From a virus (lineage: Duplodnaviria > Caudoviricetes), in IMG/VR virus record IMGVR_UViG_3300037067_026718, positions 64,001-128,000 of that record: 64,000 bases of DNA, one strand, 5' to 3'. Both the position numbers and the translations under genes were made by a program. The notes under the pieces were generated by a model. It did no database searches and was not told the origin of the DNA. It saw only the letters and a program-made list of their open reading frames with translations. Positions 1,237-63,932 of the stretch are shown here, in pieces (within the stretch, counting starts at the first letter, position 1; every line of letters starts with the position of its first letter).

Positions 1237-1875
1237 TTAATGAGCTTTCCTGCGAGGCAGCTCGGGGGACATAAGCTCTGCTGATGTTCTCGTGGCCTGA
1301 CTTGGTTTATTGATGCATTCGTAAATATCAGGAAGGTTGGCCCAGATGCATGGCGGAGTCTTTTCAAACGGAATGATCTCGGAAGAGACGGCATTGATGG
1401 CAGCATCCAGAGGGCCATCGGCTGCTTCTACGGCTGCACGCGCTCCCGTAGAGCATACGTAGTGATTCCTGCCAAACCCGAAAATCCTGGTGCCTAAGTC
1501 CATGTCTACAAGCTCGCCAAGATCATAAAGCATGCCTGAGTGTTTGAGGCAGAAAGCATAGAGAGGCTCGGGGTTCAGTGGTCCTTTCTTCTTGCGATAG
1601 ACCAGGGCATAGCTGGGATCCACAAGGTCATCGGTGATCTCGCATGGAGTGGAGCATGGATCGGTCCAATGGAATCCTGTGACTATCCCATGGATCTTGT
1701 CTTCTATGACTCGGTTGTGTGTGGCATGGGGGAATACGCAATTTTCGCCCAGCACTCTCTGGCTGTATTTTCTGACTCTCCAGTTGAAAAACTTCTTGAC
1801 GAAATTCCACCATTCAGGCTTTTTGTAGCTGACGATGATATCGCCTGGCCTTAGATCTGAAACAGTGAAAGGCAT
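1237..1875 (-). CDS. Permuted papain-like NlpC/P60 (YaeF/YiiX-type) enzyme
   Basis: LRPGDIIV, ATH (His), YD.. and YVCS (Cys) in the permuted order. Confidence 0.7.
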   Translation of the reverse strand: MPFTVSDLRPGDIIVSYKKPEWWNFVKKFFNWRVRKYSQRVLGENCVFPHATHNRVIEDKIHGIVTGFHWTDPCSTPCEITDDLVDPSYALVYRKKKGPLNPEPLYAFCLKHSGMLYDLGELVDMDLGTRIFGFGRNHYVCSTGARAAVEAADGPLDAAINAVSSEIIPFEKTPPCIWANLPDIYECINKPSQATRTSAELMSPELPRRKAH

Positions 1876-1982: not shown

Positions 1983-4487
1983 TTACTGGCCCAGGTTGGC
2001 CCAGAAGGACGCTACCTTCTCGACGTCGCCACCTGTGGCTGCCATGAGCTTGTTGTTGACCCTCTCGGCCACCTTCTCGAAGAACAGGGCTTCCTTGGCG
2101 GCAGCGATCTTCTCGAGCATGGGGTTGTGGTCCTGGGCTTCCAGAAGGGCTGCGAGCTTCTGAAGGGAAGCTTCCCTCTGGGAGAGGGCTCCACCGGCGA
2201 AACCGGCGCCACCGATTCCGAGGGCCGCGAGGAGGGCCGGAACCTTGAGGTTGCGTTTGCCACCGATGCCAGCGATACCCTTGCTGCCACCGATGCGGGA
2301 CATCAGCTCAGCGAGGGCCGGCTTCTGCTTGCCCTTCAGAAGGGGAAGAAGGGCGGCGAGGGGACTGGCCTTTGCCCAACCGGGCATGGCTCCATAGCCC
2401 TTGGCTGCCGCGGAACCGAGGCCCTTGGCTGCCGAACCGATGCCCTTGGCGGCTGTACCGAGAGCCTTCTTGTCGGTGTTGTAGATCCACTTGGCTGCAC
2501 CGGTGTTGGCGCCCATGATGGCCTTGAGGGCCTTCATGAGGCCGTTGTCGCTCTTGCCGCGACCAAGCAGGCTGGCGAGGTTGGGGGCTGCGCTTTTTTC
2601 CATCATCTCACTGATCTGAATGATGGCTGCGATCTTCTCGGACTTCGTCATTTCTGTTCCTTCCATCAGTGCTGCAATTTTCTGCAGGCTTGCCGTTCTG
2701 TCTCTGTTCAAGTAAGCCGCGGTACCCAAGCCACCCAGACCAAGGGCGGCTATGCCCGATTCTACTGGACGGTTACGCATGTAACCAAGGACGCTTTCTC
2801 CTCCTCTTCCGATTCCCCTCATGGCCTTCCCGGGGATTCCAGCGAGGTCTCCCAGAAGTTCACGGATAACCTCTCTGTTCTTTTTCCTTCTGGCTTCTTT
2901 CGCCAAGTCCACCTTGGAAAAAAGGCCTCCAAGCAATGTCTTGGGGAAAATCTTACGGTTGAGCCTGTAGTTACTCCTGAGAAAAGCGGCCTTGTTCATC
3001 GTATCATCCCTTTCCAACGAAGAGTTTTTCTTGATGGCGCTTCCTATGCCATACCCTGTTCCAACCAACCCTATGCCAGCAAGAGCCGCCGGCAGTCTGA
3101 GATCTCTCTGTGCGCCTACTCCCAGCAGCCCTCTGCGGCCCTTGAGCGACCGAAGTACTCCTTCGATACCGGCAGGCTGCAACTTCATCGCCAAGCTGCC
3201 AAGGCCTTGGTTGAAGCGCCTCCAAGGCATCAGGCGACCGAACATGATGGCCTGGGCGATGGCGTCGTGGTTGGTTGTTTTGGCCTTGATGGCACCGATG
3301 GCCTGACGAGTATTTTCTCCACCCTTACCAAGCCCCATATTGCCACCGAAGCTCTTCAAGGCGTTGATGAAATCTTTCCCTGAAGTAAGCGTGTCTGCAA
3401 AACCCTTGGGAAGAAGCCGCTGCACGAGTCTAGTATTCAGAAGTCTCATCCCAATATTCGATGCAAAACCGGCCTCTTTCAACATCGAGGCGGTCCTTTC
3501 GGGAAAGACATACGCTGGCCGTCTCTCGCGCCGGCGTGTATTGGCAAGTCCAAAGGCCAGTCCGCCAACTCCCAGACCTGCTGCGGCCAATGCAGCCGGA
3601 GTCATGAGATTCCTTCTGGCGCCGTAGCCCATGATGCCTTCGCTGCCTCCGAGCCTGTGAGCAATGCCGGTCAAGCCTCTGGGATTTGCAAAGGCGCCGA
3701 TGCCGAGGTTCTTCATGAGGTTGATGAACTTCAGGGGATTGATGCCCTTGGTTACCCCCATGTACGTGTTGATTGTCTTGAACAACTTGTAGAACTGTTC
3801 TGCAGTCATGCCGGACTGGGCTGCTGGAGCACTGGCAGCCGCCGGGGCAGCCGCCGCTACTGTTGCTCCTTTTCCACCAAAAAAGCGTTTGATCGCCGGC
3901 CAGACGGCATCCATCCGCCCAGCCTCTTTGATCAAGGCATGTCTGAGCGATGCCTTCTTGAACCTGCTGGGGGCCCAGGCGGCTGCCAGCGCAGCAGTCA
4001 AGTCTGGCGGTTTTTGGTGAAGCCTCTTTATAATATCATCCGAATTTGTAAGATCAAGACGAGGTGAATTTCTTCGACTTTTAATGGAATCGTAAGCTCG
4101 CTGAATCAAAGCTTCTCTATCAGCAGTTGCTGCTTTTCCACGCCAGCCACCAAAAAAGCGATTTAAGGCATCCATCCATCCGGCCTCTTTGACCAAAGCA
4201 AGTCTGAGCGATGCCGGCTTGAACTTGGGATCATCATTTACGGCAACCTGACTGACGGGCGGCGTGACAGGGGTATTGAGCGCAGCCATGAAAGAAGAAG
4301 CCGGTCCTCCCTTTCCGCCAGTGACGGAATTGGCAGCCTGTCTCCCTGCGGTCTGAAAGGTATTCAACGGAAACTTGTACTTGGGACCTGGGACACTTGA
4401 TATGGCATCAAGAGTCGGCTGAGCTGCCGAGCTCATTTTGGCCAGTTCCACCAACGCTGCCAATTTTCTGCGCTTCATACTGGTCAT
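1983..4487 (-). CDS. 834-aa modular Gly/Ala/Lys-rich protein; probable virion-internal polyprotein
   Basis: About 20 K-x-A motifs, repeated Gly-rich hydrophobic helices, own promoter and terminator. Confidence 0.8.
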   Translation of the reverse strand: MTSMKRRKLAALVELAKMSSAAQPTLDAISSVPGPKYKFPLNTFQTAGRQAANSVTGGKGGPASSFMAALNTPVTPPVSQVAVNDDPKFKPASLRLALVKEAGWMDALNRFFGGWRGKAATADREALIQRAYDSIKSRRNSPRLDLTNSDDIIKRLHQKPPDLTAALAAAWAPSRFKKASLRHALIKEAGRMDAVWPAIKRFFGGKGATVAAAAPAAASAPAAQSGMTAEQFYKLFKTINTYMGVTKGINPLKFINLMKNLGIGAFANPRGLTGIAHRLGGSEGIMGYGARRNLMTPAALAAAGLGVGGLAFGLANTRRRERRPAYVFPERTASMLKEAGFASNIGMRLLNTRLVQRLLPKGFADTLTSGKDFINALKSFGGNMGLGKGGENTRQAIGAIKAKTTNHDAIAQAIMFGRLMPWRRFNQGLGSLAMKLQPAGIEGVLRSLKGRRGLLGVGAQRDLRLPAALAGIGLVGTGYGIGSAIKKNSSLERDDTMNKAAFLRSNYRLNRKIFPKTLLGGLFSKVDLAKEARRKKNREVIRELLGDLAGIPGKAMRGIGRGGESVLGYMRNRPVESGIAALGLGGLGTAAYLNRDRTASLQKIAALMEGTEMTKSEKIAAIIQISEMMEKSAAPNLASLLGRGKSDNGLMKALKAIMGANTGAAKWIYNTDKKALGTAAKGIGSAAKGLGSAAAKGYGAMPGWAKASPLAALLPLLKGKQKPALAELMSRIGGSKGIAGIGGKRNLKVPALLAALGIGGAGFAGGALSQREASLQKLAALLEAQDHNPMLEKIAAAKEALFFEKVAERVNNKLMAATGGDVEKVASFWANLGQ
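3870..4225. repeat. Imperfect direct repeat (~3870-3965 and ~4145-4225) inside the 834-aa gene
   Basis: Encodes FKKASLRHALIKEAGRMDA..KRFFGG vs FKPASLRLALVKEAGWMDALNRFFGG; shared DNA CCACCAAAAAAGCG and GTCTGAGCGATGCC. Confidence 0.8.
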
Positions 4488-4525
4488 ATGAAAGATTCCT
4501 TTCGGATGATTACTCTCTATCCACT

Positions 4526-4610: not shown

Positions 4611-4633
4611 AAAAAGGGGCGATGCCGCCCCTT
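4611..4633 (-). terminator. Intrinsic terminator
   Basis: Stem AAGGGGCG/CGCCCCTT followed by a T-run on the minus strand. Confidence 0.7.
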
Positions 4634-4639
4634 CGTTTT

Positions 4640-20349: not shown

Positions 20350-22452
20350 TTATCCCATTCCTTCTCTACGTGGAGGGAGGACATCCGGCATAGGCTGAGT
20401 GCCATCATTATTCGCTTGCTGCGGACTGTTCTGGGCTCCTTCACCAGGGTTGATACCGACCCCCTGGGCTCGAAGGGCGCTGACAATTGCGTTGTATGTT
20501 TCTTGGTCATACTGATGAACGTGGTTGAGGAATGCTGTTCTTTCCTGATCTTCCATGCTTGAGAGCAAGCCGGTAATGAAGCTGATTCTGTCCTCCCCCT
20601 GAAGGGATGGCTGCCCAACCCCTCCGGCTTCCATCGAAGAGAACAGGAACCGGTCTTTCTGACCTCTGTTCAAGGATGTCTGAGCATTGGCCTGTTCCCT
20701 CATGAGGAAGGTATCGGTAGCCCTCTGGGACTTCGCAATGGCCGCCTGCCTGGCCATGAACTGGTTGACAGCGATGTTGTGCTGGAGGATGATGCTTGCA
20801 GCAATTTCAGGGGGGATCCCTTTTTGCGTATACGACTCAAACAGAGAAAGAGTCTTGTCTTTGCTGACGCGAAGCATGTCATCGGCATCTGAAGCTGCGC
20901 TGCTGGACATCATGCCTTGTATCTTGATATTGGCATCAGCCTGTGACTTGGCTGCTATGTCCTGAACGGCGGCCGATACCTGGGCTTGCCATATCTGGTA
21001 TTCCTTCATGCCAGCGCGTTCTTTGACGGGATCCAGGCCCAACGTCTTGCAGTAGGTGTCATGGCAAAAGGCTCCGTTTCGGAATCCTTCCGAGACCTGA
21101 TTTTTGTACATGACATCGTCTACACGCCTGAATTCCTTGAACGCCAGGGTATGCTTGGGGATGGCAGTTCCCATGTATTCCTGCAGCAGGCTGGAGAAAA
21201 ACTTGCAGGCCTGATTGTATCCGTTATAGGTTTCGATCCATGAGTTTTCAACAATGCGCATAGCCGCGGTGCTGCCGGCATAGTGCGCAGAGCCGTTGAA
21301 GAGCCCTCGAGGAGATCCCATGGCCAACATGGCTTCTTCGGTGTTGTACTGTATCTGAGCCGTCGGGAAAAGCATGTTGCCACGGCCCAAAGCCTGTTCA
21401 ACTCCGATGGGTATGTTCGAAATGACGAAGTGTGATGGATTCTTGACCCATTTTTTTAGCTCGCCAAACAATTCGTCGCGGAACTTGTTCAGCAAGATGG
21501 ACCCCTTGCTTAGATTTTCGTCACCTGCAAGCCTGGGGAAAAACATCGGTAGAGGAACGGTATGCTGTATCGCTATGGCTTCGGTTGCTTTCTCCAGCAG
21601 CAAATTGTTGTAGAGCTGGTTGAAAGGCTTGAGACCGCCCGGCTCGGGCCAAGGCATATCGACCTGGGTCGGATCCTCTATTCTGATGATGAACAGGTTG
21701 TCATTGTCCAGCAGCAAGGAGTTGCCGGTCATGGCCGCCTTGAGGTAATCCAAGGAGCTTCTCTTGATGTACCATTTGTCACCGCGCTTTATGCGTCTGG
21801 TAGCCTTTTCCGAAGGAGTATACCAACATACGTAATCGCCGGTGATCTCATGGGTCTTCATATCGACCCTGGTAGGATCGAAGTGAGATATCCGAACATT
21901 TTTGAAAGTAGCCGATACTTCTTCCGATGCGCTGAACGATACCTTCTTCTCTTTGCATTTCGGACAGGTACCGGTAAAGATGAGTTCCTTTTTCTTGCAC
22001 TCCATCTTCCAACTGTCGTCATCCATCGACTCGAGTGCGCTGGTTTCTCCGCACTTGCTACATTTAAGGCTAATGGCAGGGCATATCCAGAGGTATGCAA
22101 ATGCGATATTGAAAAGATGGAGGTCTATGCCTATCCTTTTGATGGACGGTATCAGCTTCAGCGCTTCGTAGTCTTTCTTCAGCTTGTCGATTTTCTGAGA
22201 TCTGGCCTCCGGAGCAAGCTTGGCATCTTCTTCAGCAAGTTCGATCTCTATCTCCGTAAGAGGATATGTAGCTTTCTGTTGTATGATATAACGGAGTGTA
22301 CCGTTCCGCTTGTAAAGCCATCGAGCAACAAGTTGCTTTTCCTTCCTTGAAACCGGTCTCTCCATTTCGGACCGGAGTCCGACAAAGGGAGAAGGCGCCG
22401 GCACACTGGCATAGTTAGAGACGGGACTACCGGAATAGATGGGATCACTCAT
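20350..22452 (-). CDS. Portal protein with a Zn-ribbon insertion
   Basis: 700 aa; helical portal-like pattern (AMLAMGSPRGLFNG..YAG), CSKC/CPKC insert, Gln-rich tail. Confidence 0.65.
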   Translation of the reverse strand: MSDPIYSGSPVSNYASVPAPSPFVGLRSEMERPVSRKEKQLVARWLYKRNGTLRYIIQQKATYPLTEIEIELAEEDAKLAPEARSQKIDKLKKDYEALKLIPSIKRIGIDLHLFNIAFAYLWICPAISLKCSKCGETSALESMDDDSWKMECKKKELIFTGTCPKCKEKKVSFSASEEVSATFKNVRISHFDPTRVDMKTHEITGDYVCWYTPSEKATRRIKRGDKWYIKRSSLDYLKAAMTGNSLLLDNDNLFIIRIEDPTQVDMPWPEPGGLKPFNQLYNNLLLEKATEAIAIQHTVPLPMFFPRLAGDENLSKGSILLNKFRDELFGELKKWVKNPSHFVISNIPIGVEQALGRGNMLFPTAQIQYNTEEAMLAMGSPRGLFNGSAHYAGSTAAMRIVENSWIETYNGYNQACKFFSSLLQEYMGTAIPKHTLAFKEFRRVDDVMYKNQVSEGFRNGAFCHDTYCKTLGLDPVKERAGMKEYQIWQAQVSAAVQDIAAKSQADANIKIQGMMSSSAASDADDMLRVSKDKTLSLFESYTQKGIPPEIAASIILQHNIAVNQFMARQAAIAKSQRATDTFLMREQANAQTSLNRGQKDRFLFSSMEAGGVGQPSLQGEDRISFITGLLSSMEDQERTAFLNHVHQYDQETYNAIVSALRAQGVGINPGEGAQNSPQQANNDGTQPMPDVLPPRREGMG

Positions 22453-23038
22453 GGCTTCGCCTTTCCACGTACTCCTCTATCATAAGAAGACGCTCAGTAT
22501 GCTGGTATTCTTCGGTTTCCAGATCTCCAGACCGGTAACTGTCGTATGAAAGTTTCAAGGCTTCCTGGATCACAGATGCTTCAGGACCCTGCCGGCTGTA
22601 GAGTATCTTCGAAAGGTATGGCTCGGCTATGTCACGCAGCTTGCCTTCGGGCAGCCAGTAGATGCCATGCTTGAAAAAGACCGCGGCGACCATGGCCTTC
22701 ACGCTGCCGGAAAACTCCTGCTCCCCGGCTATCTCTTCCATGACATGGACTCCCCAGGCTATCTGCATGGGGGTACAGTAATTGGGGTTTTCCGTTGTGA
22801 TGTCGGAACCATTGAGGGCCTTTACCGTTGCCAGGAAAACATTCCAGTCCTGCCATGCTGTATCAGCCTTGAGAGCCGACCTGACAGCCATGATGCAATC
22901 CCTCTCGGATTGCGATAAGGAAGAGTTCGTATCGGTTTCTATGGCTTCCCAGAGAACGACAGGGTCCCATATCAACCAGTCGGGGCCGTATCTGTCATTG
23001 AGCTCGGAAGCCATGGAAACCGGAGTTGATGGCATCAA
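22445..23038 (-). CDS. Hypothetical protein next to the portal
   Basis: Coupled on both sides. Confidence 0.7.
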   Translation of the reverse strand: MMPSTPVSMASELNDRYGPDWLIWDPVVLWEAIETDTNSSLSQSERDCIMAVRSALKADTAWQDWNVFLATVKALNGSDITTENPNYCTPMQIAWGVHVMEEIAGEQEFSGSVKAMVAAVFFKHGIYWLPEGKLRDIAEPYLSKILYSRQGPEASVIQEALKLSYDSYRSGDLETEEYQHTERLLMIEEYVERRSHE

Positions 23039-24144
23039 ACATCACCCTTCATCAACGCCAGGACGAGCTGCTTGTGCGCAGCGGGGAGTTCATCGAAACC
23101 GGCCTTGGGATCCTGTTCAAGCCTCGCAACGTTGCTGTCACCAATGTACTTGCGTATTACGTCGCTCTTGCTGTTCACAGTGGAACGAACGGTATCGACG
23201 GGATAGTCTATGCCCCCCATGGCCACAACCTCTTCGGCTTTCTTGCGCATGGGCTCAGTTACATGGCTGATGACGGCATCCAGAGGAGGAAGAAGCTCTT
23301 TGCTCCATCTGAAATCGAGGCGGCTGAGTCGGTCCAGCTTGTCTACTGCGGTGGCAACGGCCCGGGGATCTGATGCCGATGCAGTTTTGACGAGCTCATG
23401 ATATGCGTTTTTGAACCGGTCGCTTCCGGCCATGGCAGCCCTTTTGGCCATCTGAGATTCGAAGACTTCACTGAACTCTGTGCCGAGGATCCTCCGCGAC
23501 ACATGGTCGTCGGGGATTTCTACTCCGACATCGGACGCTCTTTTGATGATGTTGCCGGCCATCTGGACCGCATATCCAAACGCCATGATGGAAGCTTCCT
23601 TTTCGAGCTTGCGCATGGCTTCCCTGAGCTCACGCTCGGTGTCGATCGGAACGGAAAGAAATGGGGCTCCGGTAAGATCTTCGTTGATGGCGTAGCATTT
23701 GTGCGAAGCCACCTTTTCCATAGAAAGATAATGGCTTCTTTCGTCTTCCCTGGTGATGGTGTAGTAGGGGCTTCTGTAGTCAGGGCACTCGGAGGCCAGC
23801 TTGGAGATTTCATCAGGAACGACTACTGCATACCTCTGGCATGCCTTGGCGATCCCTGCCGCTGCGTGTCGCTGCATGGCGATGGGCAGCTTATCATGGT
23901 TCTCAAGAAAAGCCATCTTCGCCATCTGAGTGTTGGATAATGAATTGAGAAAGAACTTCCTGACGAGGCTGCCGGTCTTGCTCAACACGACAATAGCGAA
24001 GTCGGTATCCTTGCCTCTTCGCATGTCTTCATCGGAGTAGAATGAATCGTGGTAATGAGCCGCTACCTTCTCCATTTCGCCTTTGGGCGTAACTCCTGCA
24101 TCAACCATGTCGTACTGGTCGAGCACCAATGTCTTGATATTCAT
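23035..24144 (-). CDS. K-x-A-rich putative inner-head/scaffold-associated protein
   Basis: Ten K-x-A motifs (MEKVAA, MEKVAS, LEKEAS, IIKRAS, LVKTAS...). Confidence 0.75.
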   Translation of the reverse strand: MNIKTLVLDQYDMVDAGVTPKGEMEKVAAHYHDSFYSDEDMRRGKDTDFAIVVLSKTGSLVRKFFLNSLSNTQMAKMAFLENHDKLPIAMQRHAAAGIAKACQRYAVVVPDEISKLASECPDYRSPYYTITREDERSHYLSMEKVASHKCYAINEDLTGAPFLSVPIDTERELREAMRKLEKEASIMAFGYAVQMAGNIIKRASDVGVEIPDDHVSRRILGTEFSEVFESQMAKRAAMAGSDRFKNAYHELVKTASASDPRAVATAVDKLDRLSRLDFRWSKELLPPLDAVISHVTEPMRKKAEEVVAMGGIDYPVDTVRSTVNSKSDVIRKYIGDSNVARLEQDPKAGFDELPAAHKQLVLALMKGDV

Positions 24145-51721: not shown

Positions 51722-54553
51722 CTAAGCCTCTTCGACGACGACTGTCCAGCCATTGATCTCAAGGGCTGCCATAGCGGCCAAGCCTGTCGCACTCGGCACG
51801 GCATTGCCGCTGAGGTCGATGTAGCAGGGATCCACGACACCGTCGTCGGTACCATTCTCCATTCCGGTAGCGGTGATGGAAGTACCTGCTTCAGTAATGA
51901 CCACGTTCCCGGCTGCTCCACCGTGCTGGTTGACAAGGTCGATGACCAACGGGCTCAGCTCCCGCACAAGAGCATCAATGTCAAGCGCGGAGAGGTTGAT
52001 GGCATCGCAGAGGTTTGAAGTCGTTTCCTCTTCGTTGGCGGTCATGATCACAGGAATGTTCGGGGCTACCACGTTGTCCCCGGGATCCACTCCGCCGGAC
52101 ATCCCAACGAGCTGAAGATTGGCGCTCGTGGTTGTCATCAGTACGTTGCCTGCCTCGAGGTAAGCCGAGTTCTTGAGGGAACAGACATTGAGAAGACCTC
52201 CGGCTGCATCGAAATCAAGATGCCCCAGGCCGGCCTCAGCATCAATCGCAGCTCTGAGGGCAACGCAAGTAGCGTTTCCGATCGTCGAGTCCGCTCCTCC
52301 AGCCAACCCGACTACATCGAAGGTTGTACCGACCTCAACCATGGGAACGTCACCGGCCACTCCCGGAACGTCGTGCGTGATGTTGAGCTGTTCGTCGTCG
52401 ACTCCATCTACTTCCGATGTAATACTGATACCAGCGGCATTGATCGCCGTGTTCAGAGCTGATATGACAGCAGCTCCGTCAATTGCATCTGCCTTGCTTC
52501 TTTCAACAGCGATCAGGACATTGCCTTCGGTTACATTGGCCCCTGGAGCCGCTCCGTTGGAAAGGCCTACGACGCTGATGTTGACGCCGGAGCAAGTGAT
52601 GGCCACGTTGCCGTCTTCGCTGTGGAAGTTGCTTATGAGTTGGATGGTGTCGTCTCCAGCAACAGACGCTGCCCATACTTCCGATACATCGGATGAAGAA
52701 GCCAGATCGATGGCTGTTTGAAGGTTGTCTCTGGTCCCGGCGAGAGTACCGGCGATGAGTACTTCAACATGGCCGGGGATGATGCCTCCGCCGTCATCAA
52801 ACTCGTATGTCAGGGCTGGGTTGACGCCGTCATCAATCGTAATGGTATCTCCTGCCGACGGGATATCAGCAAGGGTTATGTGGCCAGTAGGCCGGTCTCC
52901 ATGATCGACCTGGAACACCACCGCAGGCACAAGACCATCCTCTACCTGAACAGTATCGGCATTCTGGTAAGCGCCATAATTGATCGTACCGCTTGAATGG
53001 ACGGCCGATGATCCCGGAGTGATTGCTACGGCAACATGGCCTGGCTCAACAGCAGCATTGTCATCGAACTCGAACACCACTGGGTCGTTGACTCCGTCAT
53101 CTATGGTGAGGATCTCACCATCACTGGGATTTGCTCTGTTACCGACGAGGTCTTCCAAAGTGATGGATCCAGTAGCCTGAGTACCTTCATCAAGCTCGAA
53201 GGTTTCTTCGATGCCTTGACCGTCGTCGATGGTCACTGAATCACCCGTGGTGATGTTACCGGTGTTGAGGGTAAGCGTTCCGTTGGCATGCACGGCCAGT
53301 GTTCCGGCCATGTCTTCCAGGATATCGTCGACCATGGCTTCAGTGAGGCCGAGGTCCTTGAGGCTCATGTCCCATCCACCGTGGCCGCTCCAGTCACCGC
53401 CGTCGGTATAGGCATCCACAGCGCATCCGTCGAGGACGAAAATGTATCCATCCGCAGCCGCCATGTCGATGAGATCCGCCACGTCTCCTTCGATGAGGGA
53501 CCCCGAGATGTCCAGGTAGGTATTGAGCGGGGTTGCAGCAATGATGGCCGCGAGATCTCCTTCGACCTGAGTGCCTCCAAGATCAAGGACAAGAAGCTCA
53601 TCCATCGCTGCCGTCATTGTTTCTGCCGAACCGATGAGAGTAACGCAGCCATGAGCCAAGAAAAACTGCATGGCTACCAATGTGGCAAGGTCGGCAGCGT
53701 CGCCTTCAATGGCACTGCCATCCATTCGAAGGTCTGTCATCGCTGTATACCCTGCGAGGTTGACAATGTCGCCTTCGATCGCGGTATCAACGATGTTGAG
53801 CTTTGTGAGGGCTGCGGATGCCGTTCCGCCAAGGGATGTCAAATTACCCACCACCTGAGTTCCCTCGAGGTCGATTTCCCTGAAACCTTCAAGCAAGGCA
53901 AGCTCGCTGATGTTGCCGCGGATGTTGCTGTTGGAGCAGTCGAGATAGCAGAGTTCTTCGACCTCGCTTGCTCCCCTCAGCGTGGTGCCGAGGAAAGACC
54001 GTATGCCGGAAAGGTAGAGGGAGATGATGCCGGCTCCTTCGTTGACAGCCGCAAGGGCTTTCATTCCTCCGGAGATCACTGTCCGGGTGCCGTTGACGTG
54101 GAGGGTCTCCAGCAGCGGAAGCTTTGTCAGGACTCCCAGATCGAACCTCACCACTGCCGGGGTTTCCCCGGAGATGTTCATCTGGATGCCGGTCACTATG
54201 GCATACTCGCCGCGGATCCTTATGGGGAACACGCCGGATGACCGGTAGTAATGAGTAACGGTCATGATCGCGTCATCAAAGACTGCGGATGTTACAGAGG
54301 CATCTCCCCATTCAATGGTGAGCTCAGTGCCGTCGTAATCCGGAGACGGGCTGAAAAACCTGAATGTGAGAGGAACCACCATTCCTTCGCCTTCGACTTC
54401 CACGGCATCGGCCATGTCGACGTCTGCACTGCAAAGGCTGGCGCTGATCAGATCGATCTGCTCCCGCCTTTTCCTGTTGCTCTGGTTTCTGGAAATGAAT
54501 GATTCCCTGACAACAGGGAACCGTGGAGATGCGTAAATGTCCCGGTCACTCAT
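51722..54553 (-). CDS. Virion surface protein: PKD-like domain + leucine-rich repeats + four nested repeat domains
   Basis: TIEWGD..VTHYY..GVFPIRI; LxxLxLxxTxIxGDI repeats; start ATG 54553 with GGAGG RBS. Confidence 0.8.
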   Translation of the reverse strand: MSDRDIYASPRFPVVRESFISRNQSNRKRREQIDLISASLCSADVDMADAVEVEGEGMVVPLTFRFFSPSPDYDGTELTIEWGDASVTSAVFDDAIMTVTHYYRSSGVFPIRIRGEYAIVTGIQMNISGETPAVVRFDLGVLTKLPLLETLHVNGTRTVISGGMKALAAVNEGAGIISLYLSGIRSFLGTTLRGASEVEELCYLDCSNSNIRGNISELALLEGFREIDLEGTQVVGNLTSLGGTASAALTKLNIVDTAIEGDIVNLAGYTAMTDLRMDGSAIEGDAADLATLVAMQFFLAHGCVTLIGSAETMTAAMDELLVLDLGGTQVEGDLAAIIAATPLNTYLDISGSLIEGDVADLIDMAAADGYIFVLDGCAVDAYTDGGDWSGHGGWDMSLKDLGLTEAMVDDILEDMAGTLAVHANGTLTLNTGNITTGDSVTIDDGQGIEETFELDEGTQATGSITLEDLVGNRANPSDGEILTIDDGVNDPVVFEFDDNAAVEPGHVAVAITPGSSAVHSSGTINYGAYQNADTVQVEDGLVPAVVFQVDHGDRPTGHITLADIPSAGDTITIDDGVNPALTYEFDDGGGIIPGHVEVLIAGTLAGTRDNLQTAIDLASSSDVSEVWAASVAGDDTIQLISNFHSEDGNVAITCSGVNISVVGLSNGAAPGANVTEGNVLIAVERSKADAIDGAAVISALNTAINAAGISITSEVDGVDDEQLNITHDVPGVAGDVPMVEVGTTFDVVGLAGGADSTIGNATCVALRAAIDAEAGLGHLDFDAAGGLLNVCSLKNSAYLEAGNVLMTTTSANLQLVGMSGGVDPGDNVVAPNIPVIMTANEEETTSNLCDAINLSALDIDALVRELSPLVIDLVNQHGGAAGNVVITEAGTSITATGMENGTDDGVVDPCYIDLSGNAVPSATGLAAMAALEINGWTVVVEEA

Positions 54554-54612
54554 GATTTCTACCTCCGTTTTCTGGGCCGCAGGGCCCAACTGCTTACAAT
54601 GGGCACGCCTTC

Positions 54613-60147: not shown

Positions 60148-62832
60148 TTACTTTCCGATGGGACGCAACCCCTCGAAAGACTTGTATGCACCGCCCAATC
60201 GGACGGCTGCGATTTTGGGATCTTCCTTATCGTTGTAGCTCCCTTCAGCGTACTCCTTTATTCTTGACTGACAGGCAACTACGAGGTCGGCTCGTTTGTA
60301 GAACTCATTCTGCCAGTCGGTGTTCATGAAGGTGGCAACCACATGTTTGGCGTAGTCGCTTGAAACCATGGGGGCGCCATGGGCTACTTTCTCCATTGAA
60401 GCTGTTTTCTGCCTTGTCAGGTCGAAGCGAGGTAAAAAAGAACGGACAGGCAGGAATGGAGCAAGCAACTGGGCGACCTTGTAGTTGTAGGCTACTCTCC
60501 GCATGGGGACGTTCTTCACCGATGCCATCTTGGGGGACAGCATGATGGTAACGTGCTTCTTGATCACGATCGCCCTGGGCTTGTCACCGCTTTTGAGCGC
60601 ATCGATGACAGCGTATTCCTTGGGCATGACGTGCATCCCCATCAAGCCAGCCGTATCGAAGATGTCCTCGAAAGGATGCGATGCCAGTGCTTCGCATGTC
60701 TCCATCGGAAGCTCCGGAGTAATGGCGTCCTGGTAGCCCTCGGACTCCTTTTTGTCCTTGCTTTCCACGGAGACATCGGCGGTTATGTCTTCAGGGGAAG
60801 CTTTTTCTATTTCAGCTTCCTTGCTCTTGGCTGCTTCCTTGAAGAAGAGTGCTCCTGCATCGGCAGAGAAACCGGTGAAGTATACAGTTGTTCCTATGCC
60901 GGCAGCCTTGTTGAGCTCCTGGATGACATTGGTTCCTTTGTCCGCTCTGGTGAAGACGAAACTCTGGTCGAAGAAAGTCGGCTTTGTGTTGTGAACGCAA
61001 GTGATCCTTCCCCGGTTCGCCATGTCGTTGTAAGGATGGAACTGAAGAAGATGGTTCTTCGCGTGGTCACAGTACTCGGCCCGGGTCTTGGCTTTCTTGC
61101 CGCAGATGGAGCAGACGTCATAAGGAACCCTGCAGTTGTGAACAGCGATGCCATCCAATAGATAACTTTCGTCGTCAGAGACAGCAAAGTTATAGACATC
61201 ATCATCATATGGAACAACTTCATTCTCCTCAACAGGCGTAATGAGATACAGGACATCGTCTATCATGGAAAAGAATCTCTTGTTGTTTATTGTCTTCGAT
61301 CTTCCCAGTATATGTGATGACCGGTGAAGTCGATACGCTGTATCGGTTCCAATCCATATCTGATACTCTATAGTCTGCTTGCGTACCAGAGATCGTGGGC
61401 CCGGCTTATGAACTATGACATTAACAGAAGAGATCATCATACATCTAAGCAATATGATTTGTAGTTGCTTTGCAAGCTGGAAGGATGCTGTTGATAGATA
61501 GATGGAACCTTGATAGCAACCACCATCTCCATTAGCGTAAGCTCCCAAAAACTCTTGGAGGCTTTCTTCCTCAGCACCCATAATCGATGATGACAACGTC
61601 TTGCTGGTAGAGCCAACACCGCAATGTTCAATGCATAGTTCGGTAAAAGACCGATCATAAATGGTGATGTACTTACCATTTCGCTCTTCGATGTCACGCT
61701 CTGTGACAGAAGTGAACCCCATACGCTCTGCTAAAGACAGTATTTCTTGATGTATAGATGTCTCATGCAAACCTGTGCAGAATTGCACAGCCATGGGAGT
61801 TCCAGCCTTTGTATAGAGAGGACATCCTTCGGCTAGATAGTACCCCAAAAGGCGGCTTTCGTCGACAGAGAATTTCCTTGCAGCATCAAAAGTAGGTACT
61901 GGCGTTAGTAGGCGATCACCTATATCTACTTCATCAGCTCTGATCCATTCTGGCCTATATTTTATTTGTGTTTTGCAGGAAACGCAGCCTGACTTAATAA
62001 AAGGGCTATCTGGAGTACAGACCTGCTGACGACGTCCGCGGTTTATGTCGTTACTAGATGGTTTGCATAGAATTTGGTCAGATCTCAGAACCAAGAGGGG
62101 ATGTTCGTCTGTTAGAATGAGAGGATCACGGTTTCCATATACTTTGATATGATGAATATTGCCCCGGTGTTTACGTACCATTGTTGTAGTGACGGATTTC
62201 GGTACTCCTCTATGCGTTATCACTTTGTCACCAGAGGAGATTGTTTCGATGGGAACGTATTGACCATCGGAAGATAGAATCATTGATCCCTTTGGTACGC
62301 AGCCCATGCTGACATCCGGAAACTTGCCGCTTCTGATCCTGGCTATGATCTCGATCGACTTGCTGATGTCTTTGTCCAACCTGGATATGACCTCGATCCT
62401 GTGCATCTTGAGGTTGTAGCCCGTGGCTATGACCTTGCCAATACTCAGCTTTGGATCGCTGTTGTTATGAAGCAGGAAGGGATGGGCGTTGGTGAAAGTC
62501 CTGTAGTAACCATCATAGTAGATGTTCTGCTCTGGGAAGCTGTCCCCGTTGTTGTTGGGGCCGTAGTACTCGAAGGCCGACACGATGTTGATGTGAGTGT
62601 AGACATGCTTGTCGAAGTCGGGGTCGCAGTCATGCCAGAACTGGGCAAGCTCGTCGGGCATGACAGACAGGTCCATAGTGCTGTCCAGATCGGCTGATGC
62701 CATCTTGGCCATCGATTCCCTGGAAAGCAAAAGATGCATCCTGGGGCTGCCGAGAGGGTCATGGCTGCCAACGTTGACCAGTTTGATCATTCCGCCATCG
62801 GTTGGCATCGTCATCAGTACCTTCCGCTCCAT
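60148..62832 (-). CDS. Prohead maturation protease (intein-split) with a Zn finger and a K-x-A-rich C-terminal region
   Basis: NNNGDSF, PFLLHNN (His), IGKVI, DVSMG (Ser), CSICG..YCDH; position before scaffold and capsid genes. Confidence 0.75.
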   Translation of the reverse strand: MERKVLMTMPTDGGMIKLVNVGSHDPLGSPRMHLLLSRESMAKMASADLDSTMDLSVMPDELAQFWHDCDPDFDKHVYTHINIVSAFEYYGPNNNGDSFPEQNIYYDGYYRTFTNAHPFLLHNNSDPKLSIGKVIATGYNLKMHRIEVISRLDKDISKSIEIIARIRSGKFPDVSMGCVPKGSMILSSDGQYVPIETISSGDKVITHRGVPKSVTTTMVRKHRGNIHHIKVYGNRDPLILTDEHPLLVLRSDQILCKPSSNDINRGRRQQVCTPDSPFIKSGCVSCKTQIKYRPEWIRADEVDIGDRLLTPVPTFDAARKFSVDESRLLGYYLAEGCPLYTKAGTPMAVQFCTGLHETSIHQEILSLAERMGFTSVTERDIEERNGKYITIYDRSFTELCIEHCGVGSTSKTLSSSIMGAEEESLQEFLGAYANGDGGCYQGSIYLSTASFQLAKQLQIILLRCMMISSVNVIVHKPGPRSLVRKQTIEYQIWIGTDTAYRLHRSSHILGRSKTINNKRFFSMIDDVLYLITPVEENEVVPYDDDVYNFAVSDDESYLLDGIAVHNCRVPYDVCSICGKKAKTRAEYCDHAKNHLLQFHPYNDMANRGRITCVHNTKPTFFDQSFVFTRADKGTNVIQELNKAAGIGTTVYFTGFSADAGALFFKEAAKSKEAEIEKASPEDITADVSVESKDKKESEGYQDAITPELPMETCEALASHPFEDIFDTAGLMGMHVMPKEYAVIDALKSGDKPRAIVIKKHVTIMLSPKMASVKNVPMRRVAYNYKVAQLLAPFLPVRSFLPRFDLTRQKTASMEKVAHGAPMVSSDYAKHVVATFMNTDWQNEFYKRADLVVACQSRIKEYAEGSYNDKEDPKIAAVRLGGAYKSFEGLRPIGK
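61135..62301 (-). mobile_element. Intein with LAGLIDADG homing endonuclease (389 aa)
   Basis: CVPKGS start, LTDEHP block B, LLGYYLAEG and FLGAYANGDG, VYNFAV..AVHN|C end; visibly more AT-rich than its flanks. Confidence 0.93.
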
Positions 62833-63932
62833 TCGAGGCCAGGCCTTTCGCCCAAGATGGCCTTGAAAGTGTCGGGTTCCTGCATGAGTCTCTCTTCGTT
62901 CACTGCCCCCGCAAGGGCTGGAGCGATGTTCATGGGCTCCATTTTCATGCTGGTTGCGACAGCCGATGGATCCCTGGACTGTATATCAACAAGGGCCTTC
63001 GCTGTGTTGATGTCCAGGCCGTCAATACCATAGTCGACTGCGTTGCGAAGCAGTACTGAGGCTGTTGACGGTATGCTGGCCAGGCTGGGAGACAAGCGGT
63101 GAATGTCTTCGTAGAGAATCTCGTACCTGGGATCCTTCAAAAACTCCGGATACCTGGCCGTGAGAGCGTCCCAGTGTCTCTGCCGTGATGCTTTCTCGGT
63201 GACCTTGCTCTCGGCTATCAGGTAAGCCCTGCCGAGCTGCTGAGCAGCAAATGCCGCGGCAGCCAGTGCCGCGTATGTCTTCCATCCGAGACGAGGGTTG
63301 AAAGCTTCCTTCTGCATACCCTGCTGAAGGGATATGGCTCCAGCCAGGGCTCTTTCTCTGATGTCTGAAAATTCCATATCTCCTCCAAGCGATGCTGTCT
63401 TACGACCGCCGTAATTTTTGTTCCACTTGATGAACGGATTTCTGGCGCCCATGGCAGCCCCTGTCTGAGCTGCATGCCTGGCTATAATGGGCCTGTTTAT
63501 GGCGTAGTTGAGATAAGCGAACAGAGGAGCAGTGACGGCTCCATAGGTAATGCCTCCGGCTACATTCGAAGCCCTGCCATACCTTTTGGCGATCTGACTG
63601 AGCCTGCTGAACTTGGGGGCCGACCTGAGGTGAGAAGCAAGTTCTGCTGTTCCAACAGTGCCATGACCGGGGAGAGCATTGACCAAACGCTGGTATCTGC
63701 TGTTTACAATATTCTGGGGCATCCTTGCCAAGTGTCCGATACCAGGGATTTTTTGATACAACATGTAAGGAAGAAAAGACGCCGGTATGCTGAGCAAAGG
63801 GCTGCTCTGGACAAAACCAGGCATCAGATTGTTGATCCCACCCGCACCCGGGGTGGAAGCAACATCAGGCCTGATCTCCCCAAAGGTGGAGCGCAGTCGC
63901 TGCGCTACCTTCCTCAGCGTACTTTGTTTCAT
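62814..63932 (-). CDS. Two-module K-x-A protein with hydrophobic helices
   Basis: LRKVAQ, GRKTAS, MQKEAF; internal GGAGGA-ATG at 63377. Confidence 0.75.
   Translation of the reverse strand: MKQSTLRKVAQRLRSTFGEIRPDVASTPGAGGINNLMPGFVQSSPLLSIPASFLPYMLYQKIPGIGHLARMPQNIVNSRYQRLVNALPGHGTVGTAELASHLRSAPKFSRLSQIAKRYGRASNVAGGITYGAVTAPLFAYLNYAINRPIIARHAAQTGAAMGARNPFIKWNKNYGGRKTASLGGDMEFSDIRERALAGAISLQQGMQKEAFNPRLGWKTYAALAAAAFAAQQLGRAYLIAESKVTEKASRQRHWDALTARYPEFLKDPRYEILYEDIHRLSPSLASIPSTASVLLRNAVDYGIDGLDINTAKALVDIQSRDPSAVATSMKMEPMNIAPALAGAVNEERLMQEPDTFKAILGERPGLEWSGRY

Follow-up and report, generated by a model that had tools for sequence, protein, structure and literature searches.

The protein considered here is the 834-residue product of an open reading frame (P0001; 1983-4487, minus strand) in the window, a stretch of 64,000 nucleotides that corresponds to positions 64001-128000 of a phage contig, C3; coordinates given without a contig name are window positions. 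We hold with moderate confidence that this frame encodes a capsid-targeted cargo polyprotein, the modules of which are jointed by protease sites, and that it yields basic glycine-zipper peptides that are delivered with the DNA. To judge from its sequence, the protein probably enters the capsid and is cleaved into a number of glycine-rich peptides, which may insert into membranes. The best-supported description of this scheme is that of a variant of the scheme for the internal proteins of T4 and of the processing of ejection proteins in giant phages.

The mechanism would be as follows. An N-terminal helical leader would direct the chain into the prohead during its assembly, in the manner of the capsid-targeting sequence (CTS) of T4 internal proteins, and a protease of the T4 gp21 type would then cut at or beside each joint of the form hydrophobic-x-K-x-A/S-G/S/A. 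With the leader and the spacers cut away, about six pieces would result, each 83-161 residues long; four of them would be strongly basic (+13 to +17) and would end in a glycine-zipper segment with a basic stretch behind it. They would stay in the head, counterbalance the charge of the DNA that fills it, and exit with the DNA; after ejection, the glycine-zipper segments would oligomerise in the inner membrane of the host and help the DNA and the protein cargo to pass.

Joints, leader and modules of the 834-residue protein

The joint motif was defined by the regular expression [LIVMF]xKx[AS][GSA], with the expectation taken from composition-preserving shuffles. The protein contains ten copies against 1.3 expected (a Poisson tail of about 1e-6 by our own arithmetic), one at residue 15 in the N-terminus and the others at or near every module border; one match, IKKNSS, is probably due to chance. 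The rest of the proteome has 48 copies against 22 expected, and these are concentrated in a few head-region proteins. The original prediction, made from the DNA alone, had divided this frame, which is indeed present, at five linkers, and all of these are found (ASLRLALVKEAG at residues 92-103, ASLRHALIKEAG at 179-190, TASMLKEAG at 332-340, MNKAA at 497-501, and MMEKSAA at 628-634), as are the four glycine-rich module ends that it quoted (278-313, 447-482, 578-592, and 731-766), ends 1 and 4 being about 56% identical over 36 residues by our own count on the printed sequences. Further joints lie in the leader (LAKMSS, 15-20) and at LQKIAA (601-606), LQKLAA (775-780), LEKIAA (791-796), and VEKVAS (822-827). 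The resulting segments, in the order of the protein, are these (here and below, a slash marks a border):

4431-4487, minus strand: N-terminal leader, residues 1-19 (..RKLAALVELAKMS/S), like the IIKLAAxIxLEKxA/G leader; predicted helix 3-18
4182-4430, minus strand: segment 20-102, rich in Pro, Thr, and Ser, no hydrophobic span; terminal joint LVKEA/G
3921-4181, minus strand: module 103-189, charge +8, no hydrophobic span; terminal joint LIKEA/G
3471-3920, minus strand: module 190-339, +14, glycine zipper 295-316 and basic stretch; terminal joint MLKEA/G
2988-3470, minus strand: module 340-500, +15, glycine zipper 465-486; terminal joint TMNKAA/F
2673-2987, minus strand: module 501-605, +13, glycine zipper 576-593; terminal joint LQKIA/A
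2589-2672, minus strand: acidic leader-like spacer 606-633 (..SEKIAAIIQISEMMEKSA/A); predicted helix 615-631
2151-2588, minus strand: module 634-779, +17, glycine zipper 749-769; terminal joint LQKLA/A
1986-2150, minus strand: C-terminal helical tail 780-834 with motif copies LEKIAA and VEKVAS

Several small, unrelated basic proteins of the phage start with ..IIKLAAxIxLEKxA/G(W) (C3 57316, 129195, 129845, and 131081). The 834-residue protein itself starts with a copy of this leader, RKLAALVELAKMSS, and its linkers reproduce the leader in half or in full. Internal full copies are also found in C3 130303 and 139150, two further proteins of the phage, so leader-jointed chains are habitual in it. 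Among the leadered proteins are one with an InPase domain, a domain that PHROGs ties to minor head proteins and to giant cargo proteins, and one with an HExxH motif. An N-terminal tag that is common to unrelated proteins of the same phage and that ends in the putative protease motif is characteristic of CTS-type cargo.

The layout had also been likened to leader/core repeat precursors, and a multi-core precursor of secreted peptides, akin to bacteriocins or to ribosomally synthesised and post-translationally modified peptides, would have the same repeated leader/core look and glycine-rich cores. We find this origin barely credible: enzymes such as the InPase-domain and HExxH proteins carry the leader too, the head protease itself has kept the motif (see below), and no gene for a modification enzyme, an exporter, or a double-glycine peptidase lies nearby. 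The analogy is superficial, the leader here being a presumed capsid address and protease tag and not a tag for a modification enzyme.

The closest homologue of the protein is a sister copy of 751 residues (P0003; 91% identity). The ratio of nonsynonymous to synonymous substitution rates between the two is 0.27, which indicates that the frame is real and under purifying selection. The sister keeps all six motif residues at eight sites and K-A-A at a ninth (TMNKAA), while residues directly after some of the sites diverge; the tenth match, LVKEAG, falls in the module that the sister is missing. The latter lacks exactly the 87 residues (module 103-189) between two DNA repeats:

3906-3966: copy 1 of a direct repeat, in the region of linker ASLRHALIKEAG
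4167-4227: copy 2, in the region of linker ASLRLALVKEAG, 85% identical to copy 1

A duplication of about 90 bp had been taken as a sign of recent module expansion. The repetition exists, as a direct repeat of 61 nt with 85% identity plus a 16-nt piece, with the copies spaced by 261 nt, but it spans no more than the linker and the beginnings of two modules that are otherwise dissimilar. Recombination between linkers therefore fits better than a recent tandem duplication, and the difference of 87 residues would be a gain or a loss by such recombination rather than a demonstrable recent expansion. Module number varies between near-identical copies in both lineages found (834 versus 751 residues, and 710 versus 856 residues), a comparison that the original prediction had listed as a check. 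Self-BLAST of the protein gave no off-diagonal matches, and gapped self-alignment was over-extended, so the repeat architecture is read from the motif and from the alignment of the module ends.

In composition, the protein is 16% Ala, 12% Gly, 11% Leu, and 15% Lys plus Arg, and its net charge of +71 makes it the most basic protein of a phage whose large structural proteins are mostly acidic. It has four uncharged Gly/Ala/Leu segments (295-316, 465-486, 576-593, and 749-769), each preceded by Pro and followed by basic residues, with 5-6 Gly and 3-7 small-xxx-small pairs apiece; the Pfam glycine-zipper families have no match in the protein. The modules had been called amphipathic, a description that the sequence does not support: the mean helical hydrophobic moment is 0.224 versus 0.223 in shuffled sequences, and 6.4% of the windows exceed the shuffled 95th percentile.

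AlphaFold2, run on the three available sequences, gave a predicted local distance difference test (pLDDT) of 32.6 and a predicted template-modelling score of 0.22, and the ESM Atlas model is similar (0.40). The leader and the linkers are predicted to be helical, the models consisting otherwise of short helices and coil, and the C-terminal tail is the sole part modelled with moderate confidence. The models do not support a single globular domain, the fold that would have spoken against separate modules.

The prohead protease and the K-x-A/S core

The enzyme that would cut the joints is encoded near the other end of the window:

60148-62832, minus strand: prohead (head-maturation) serine protease of the T4 gp21 type, 894 residues, with motif copies MAKMAS (41) and LNKAAG (640)

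The protease gene is interrupted by a LAGLIDADG intein (about 61126-62304), which lies directly after the catalytic VSMG and before the conserved +1 Cys, that is, in the active site. Homologues in five related phages are without the intein, and the C-extein has conserved homologues in all five of the related phage records searched. An intein-free homologue of 468 residues (L101) has 246 relatives, none of them annotated. Its AlphaFold2 model, based on an alignment of 69 sequences, has a pLDDT of 77.5 (above 90 for residues 40-210), and its best Foldseek match is T4 gp21 (5jbl; E 2e-5, probability 1.00, target template-modelling score 0.65), with herpesvirus proteases ranking next. All 69 family members have His99 and Ser152-Met153. 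The model thus indicates that the phage encodes a prohead serine protease of the gp21/herpesvirus fold, as a phage with CTS-type cargo should.

Prohead proteases, T4 gp21 among them, cleave themselves at the motif that they recognise. In this family, the sequence L-A-K-V-A-S occurs in the disordered linker after the catalytic domain, where K222 and A224 are kept in 66 of the 69 members, and 42 of the 69 have a motif copy near the N-terminus. Among the indirect evidence for K-x-A/S as the recognition site, this conservation is the strongest.

The family also occurs in Salmonella phage Arash (gp222), three Vibrio phages, Bacillus phage G (gp19), and the cluster C mycobacteriophages; phage G gp19 has been termed a head maturation protease (PMC12484599). 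The Pfam models for S77, S78, S49, and ClpP match nothing on C3 or in three relatives. Two other genes were considered as sources of the activity and rejected. The 197-residue product of 22445-23038 is conserved in relatives but is helical and acidic and has no protease motifs, and a neighbour of the polyprotein gene with a C92-like fold (212 residues, see below), considered as the leader peptidase, has a homologue in only one of five relatives.

The parallel with T4 is close. In IPI, IPII, IPIII, and Alt, as here, a short N-terminal helical tag is common to unrelated, mostly basic proteins; in T4 this capsid-targeting tag is removed by the prohead protease gp21, a protease of that fold is also encoded here, and the present tag ends in the presumed motif of this protease. 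The differences are that T4 cuts after hydrophobic-x-Glu, whereas the conserved core here is K-x-A/S; that T4 cargo has one tag and gives one product each, whereas here there are around ten sites per chain, with internal leader copies joining the products; and that T4 internal proteins are without membrane-like segments, whereas the 834-residue protein has four candidates.

In phiKZ, 201phi2-1, and SPN3US, ejection and inner-body proteins are processed by gp175/gp245 at S/A/G-x-E (PMC5694885, PMC10052503). These phages resemble the present one in having many packaged head proteins, including a virion RNA polymerase, in the N-terminal tags shared by paralogues, and in the abundant ejection proteins that are cut at several motif copies; they differ in the motif and in that no glycine-zipper modules have been described for them.

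Relatives, cultured phages and the fate of the proposed pieces

The 834-residue frame has no match in Pfam, in PHROGs, or, by tblastn, in INPHARED, nor in 35 other genomes of the order of the host bin; a word-indexed search of 5.8 billion proteins and a full phmmer search of 1.84 billion representatives returned only the sister copy and one weak analogue. The ESM Atlas gave no useful look-alike, and a module-end profile search of IMG/VR gave no confirmed relative. Related phages were found instead through the RNA polymerase: its N-terminus retrieved nothing, but a beta' fragment used as query retrieved 531 relatives in IMG/VR, of which 80 loci were kept. A phmmer search of the frame and of a distant relative, P0004, against the 6,189 open reading frames of related loci gave no homologue.

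On the polymerase strand of these relatives, 781 genes remained after deduplication. The motif falls within the first 30 residues of 72 of their products, where 16 would be expected, and a glycine-zipper segment is found in 39% of these 72 versus 15% of the rest. In L018, the closest relative, the polymerase gene is directly followed by five small genes, each encoding a leader (LTKQAA, LTKLAT, LKTAA, LTKTAS) and then a glycine zipper. In L031, a basic glycine-rich module is fused to a SNF2-type helicase through ..GMAKVAAAAA.., while in L032 the same two are separate genes and the unfused helicase starts with MSLGDYLIKSAAA (..YLIKSAA). As read from these gene layouts in the relatives, the modules behave as units, and a leader turns into an internal linker when genes fuse.

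Two observations on these loci may be added. The helicase (L031:16832-20035 versus L032:17434-20606) is leadered in one and fused in the other, which suggests a packaged helicase. At L035:19125-19973 there is a leadered basic protein of 282 residues with a J-domain (HPD motif) and a C-terminal glycine zipper, which may be a packaged co-chaperone.

This modularity bears on the idea that the protein stays uncut and acts as a four-span membrane protein in the infected cell, for example in superinfection exclusion, lysis timing, or membrane remodelling. Such a role, which we judge unlikely, would suit four hydrophobic segments flanked by basic residues and a gene that lies outside the head cluster in its own terminator-bounded unit. 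It leaves unexplained the N-terminal cargo leader, the nine further motif copies at or near module borders, the existence of the modules as separate genes in relatives, and the changes in module number without loss of frame; moreover, segments of such weak hydrophobicity would not insert efficiently during translation.

P0004 (E 8.7e-5), the sole distant relative of the frame in sequence, comes from an AT-rich phage contig. Its similarity is confined to module 501-605, and its layout is ..ENPxxAALTALGLGGxGTxLYLNRKNKKKK-ELEKxSS-MxKLAG.., that is, a zipper, a polybasic stretch, ELEKxSS, and M-x-K-L-A-G, with single and double modules as neighbouring genes. This AT-rich phage (L006:74-1150, L005:15119-16336) also has TnpB/Cas12f-like genes, a reverse-transcriptase fragment, and several ankyrin-repeat proteins.

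The P0004 homologue adjoins tail-fibre genes, and the 834-residue protein is long, Ala/Gly-rich, and repetitive, with hydrophobic glycine-rich segments; it might thus be a tail tape-measure protein with membrane-entering segments, like T5 pb2 or lambda gpH. This is very improbable given that the gene lies about 45 kb from the sheath and tube region and adjoins genes for RNA polymerase and an exonuclease, that the protein has a head-cargo leader and no predicted long continuous helices, and that whole modules are lost or gained between near-identical phages, which would alter tail length.

The phage itself is uncultured; a cultured parallel is Arash. Its annotated major capsid protein, gp226, starts with ..DQGLVKEAG/AAMS, and the same LVKEAG is found at residues 98-103 of the 834-residue protein; its acidic scaffold-like protein, gp223, has six motif sites. 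In sequence, then, the putative cleavage motif is near-invariant in the protease linker, occurs close to the start of the Arash capsid protein, and is present in multiple copies in scaffold-like proteins. Arash gp224 (207 residues, +21) is a short chain in which LKKQAG and MTKSSG separate the glycine-zipper segments. In purified Arash virions, gp224 was detected by 8 peptides and 222 spectra, gp221 by 8 and 355, and gp213 by 7 and 143 (PMC10585845 Table 2), the most detected protein being the RNA polymerase beta subunit, and the helicase gp217 being present too (PMC10585845). Like the 834-residue protein, gp224, gp221, and gp213 are basic and Gly/Ala-rich, have glycine-zipper segments separated by K-x-A/S-G, and occur in a phage with a protease of the same family (gp222); they are located in the virion. 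Unlike it, they have 184-214 residues and are encoded within the head gene cluster. The 372-residue product of 62814-63932 was considered as a capsid protein and rejected; it has a weak likeness to Arash gp221, a leadered glycine-zipper protein.

Several points weigh against the cargo polyprotein. Its gene sits outside the head cluster among replication and transcription genes (RNA polymerase, exonuclease). The Arash proteins have no significant sequence similarity to it and are analogues only, and the virion table gives 100% coverage for several of them, so it does not demonstrate cutting (PMC10585845). In SPN3US, all the mapped cuts except the self-cleavage of the protease remove N-terminal propeptides and do not give several mature products (PMC10052503), so a true polyprotein would depart from that pattern. 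The bond that is cut could be the one after A, the one after the next G, or, in the LEK variants, the one after the preceding E, and literature searches found no publication on the cleavage specificity of this protease family. The alignment of three sequences on which the models rest is too shallow to prove disorder. Finally, the four segments are marginally hydrophobic (1.4-1.6 on the Kyte-Doolittle scale), with an estimated free energy of insertion of +2.8 to +5.8 kcal/mol (Hessa scale).

The membrane step is the weakest link, and the main rival is a purely DNA-binding or core role. Loading and cutting would be the same, but the pieces would only condense DNA or build a core, as do the T4 internal proteins and the phiKZ inner body, and the hydrophobic segments would serve protein-protein packing. 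We regard this as a real, if tentative, possibility. It would accord with the charge of +71 in a phage with mostly acidic large structural proteins, with segments that are marginal as membrane spans, and with the absence of an amphipathic signal. Yet charge neutralisation alone needs no hydrophobic segment, and the succession of a conserved Pro, 16-21 uncharged Gly/Ala/Leu residues, and a polybasic run is the layout of a membrane anchor; it is seen repeatedly, both in two unrelated lineages and among numerous small proteins with the leader.

The original proposal that the chain is processed into several glycine-zipper peptides gains support from the comparative evidence, namely linkers that are copies of leader and motif, separate leadered genes in relatives, and a protease of the T4 type. 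As to what the peptides would do, the original prediction had offered ejection or channel-forming proteins or an internal lipid-associated layer. The latter finds no support, the phage being a tailed one whose terminase is of the gpA type and whose tail is contractile. Ejection or channel formation may plausibly be what the peptides do, although their segments are only marginally hydrophobic.

The virion-carried pilot proteins phiX174 H and T5 pb2 are thought to build a channel through the envelope. The same is thought of the virion-carried ejection proteins of P22 (gp7, gp16, and gp20), T7 (gp14, gp15, and gp16), and N4 (PMC8954989, PMC13434306). All of these differ from the 834-residue protein in having no relation to it in sequence or fold and in being single-gene products and not protease-jointed chains. 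A more specific proposal, which we consider doubtful, is that the released peptides form the long-sought inner-membrane conduit of a contractile-tailed phage: the polyprotein, carried in the head in soluble form and bound to DNA, would be cut by the head protease, the peptides would be ejected ahead of the DNA and assemble into a pore, this pore would pass the genome and the packaged single-chain RNA polymerase, and shuffling of modules at the repeated leaders would adapt it to the host.

Genomic setting and significance

The contig C3 has 157,672 bp, and its first 200 bases are seen again at 149,067, so it was circularly assembled or is terminally redundant, with a length of about 149 kb. A gpA-type large terminase (C3 131549-133189; PF05876, phrog_675) and a contractile tail identify a tailed phage, most of whose large proteins have no match in Pfam or PHROGs. 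C3 was binned with a bacterial metagenome-assembled genome. This bin has 4.85 Mb, versus 0.7-2.6 Mb for the listed genomes of its genus, family, and order, and a contamination of 6.4%; it may therefore be mixed, and the host of the phage is not readable from it. The features that surround the 834-residue frame, or that are referred to above, are these:

2-1222: start of the RNA polymerase gene, matching Rpb2 domain 3
1237-1875, minus strand: 212-residue look-alike of permuted papains (Peptidase_C92/NlpC-P60 clan), the next gene downstream; structural look-alike, template-modelling score 0.67
1983-4487, minus strand: the 834-residue polyprotein frame
4496-4503, minus strand: ribosome-binding site GAAAGGAA, 8 nt 5' of the ATG at 4487
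4613-4634, minus strand: hairpin and T run like an intrinsic terminator, upstream of the 834-residue gene
23035-24144, minus strand: acidic protein of 369 residues with 7 motif copies versus 0.33 expected, conserved in relatives
51722-54589: tail sheath

The terminator-like hairpin upstream implies that the 834-residue gene opens a new transcription unit. A promoter search found a single TTGACA-N23-TACAAT upstream of the gene, with no repeat elsewhere, and k-mer enrichment for promoters gave ribosome-binding sites and terminators only.

Downstream, the 212-residue protein has no Pfam match; its Atlas model resembles Peptidase_C92/NlpC-P60 hydrolases and has look-alikes in many phage clusters, and on the basis of this model it could be a virion cell-wall hydrolase. 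The RNA polymerase gene lies 3' of it (the full frame has 2,392 residues and carries the beta' motif NADFDGD) and is followed by the gene for the leadered HExxH protein. Such an arrangement would suit an ejection set, but the order is not conserved in relatives, where a homologue of the 212-residue protein was found in one of the five searched. The leadered gene (C3 57316-58044, minus strand, about 6 kb before the start of the window) encodes a glycine zipper, an RHELGH zinc-protease motif, and a C-terminal glycine zipper, so that its product looks like a membrane-anchored metalloprotease that may be packaged.

The 369-residue protein is, from its motif content, probably another substrate of the protease. 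Its gene belongs to a trio (20350-24144, minus strand; 369, 197, and 700 residues) that is kept in relatives, where it lies directly upstream of the RNA polymerase gene, whereas here it is around 16 kb away.

Several consequences would follow if the 834-residue protein is indeed a cargo polyprotein. A large clade of big phages, spanning the cultured Arash, phage G, and the cluster C mycobacteriophages, would use an undescribed code for its head protease, K-x-A/S instead of x-x-E. A capsid-address leader would double as an internal joint, with one gene giving several products and with modules that can be swapped by recombination between leaders. There would be a simple rule to predict capsid cargo from sequence and a handle for loading foreign proteins into the head. 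Lastly, the released peptides would be candidates for the unsolved step by which contractile-tailed phages cross the inner membrane.

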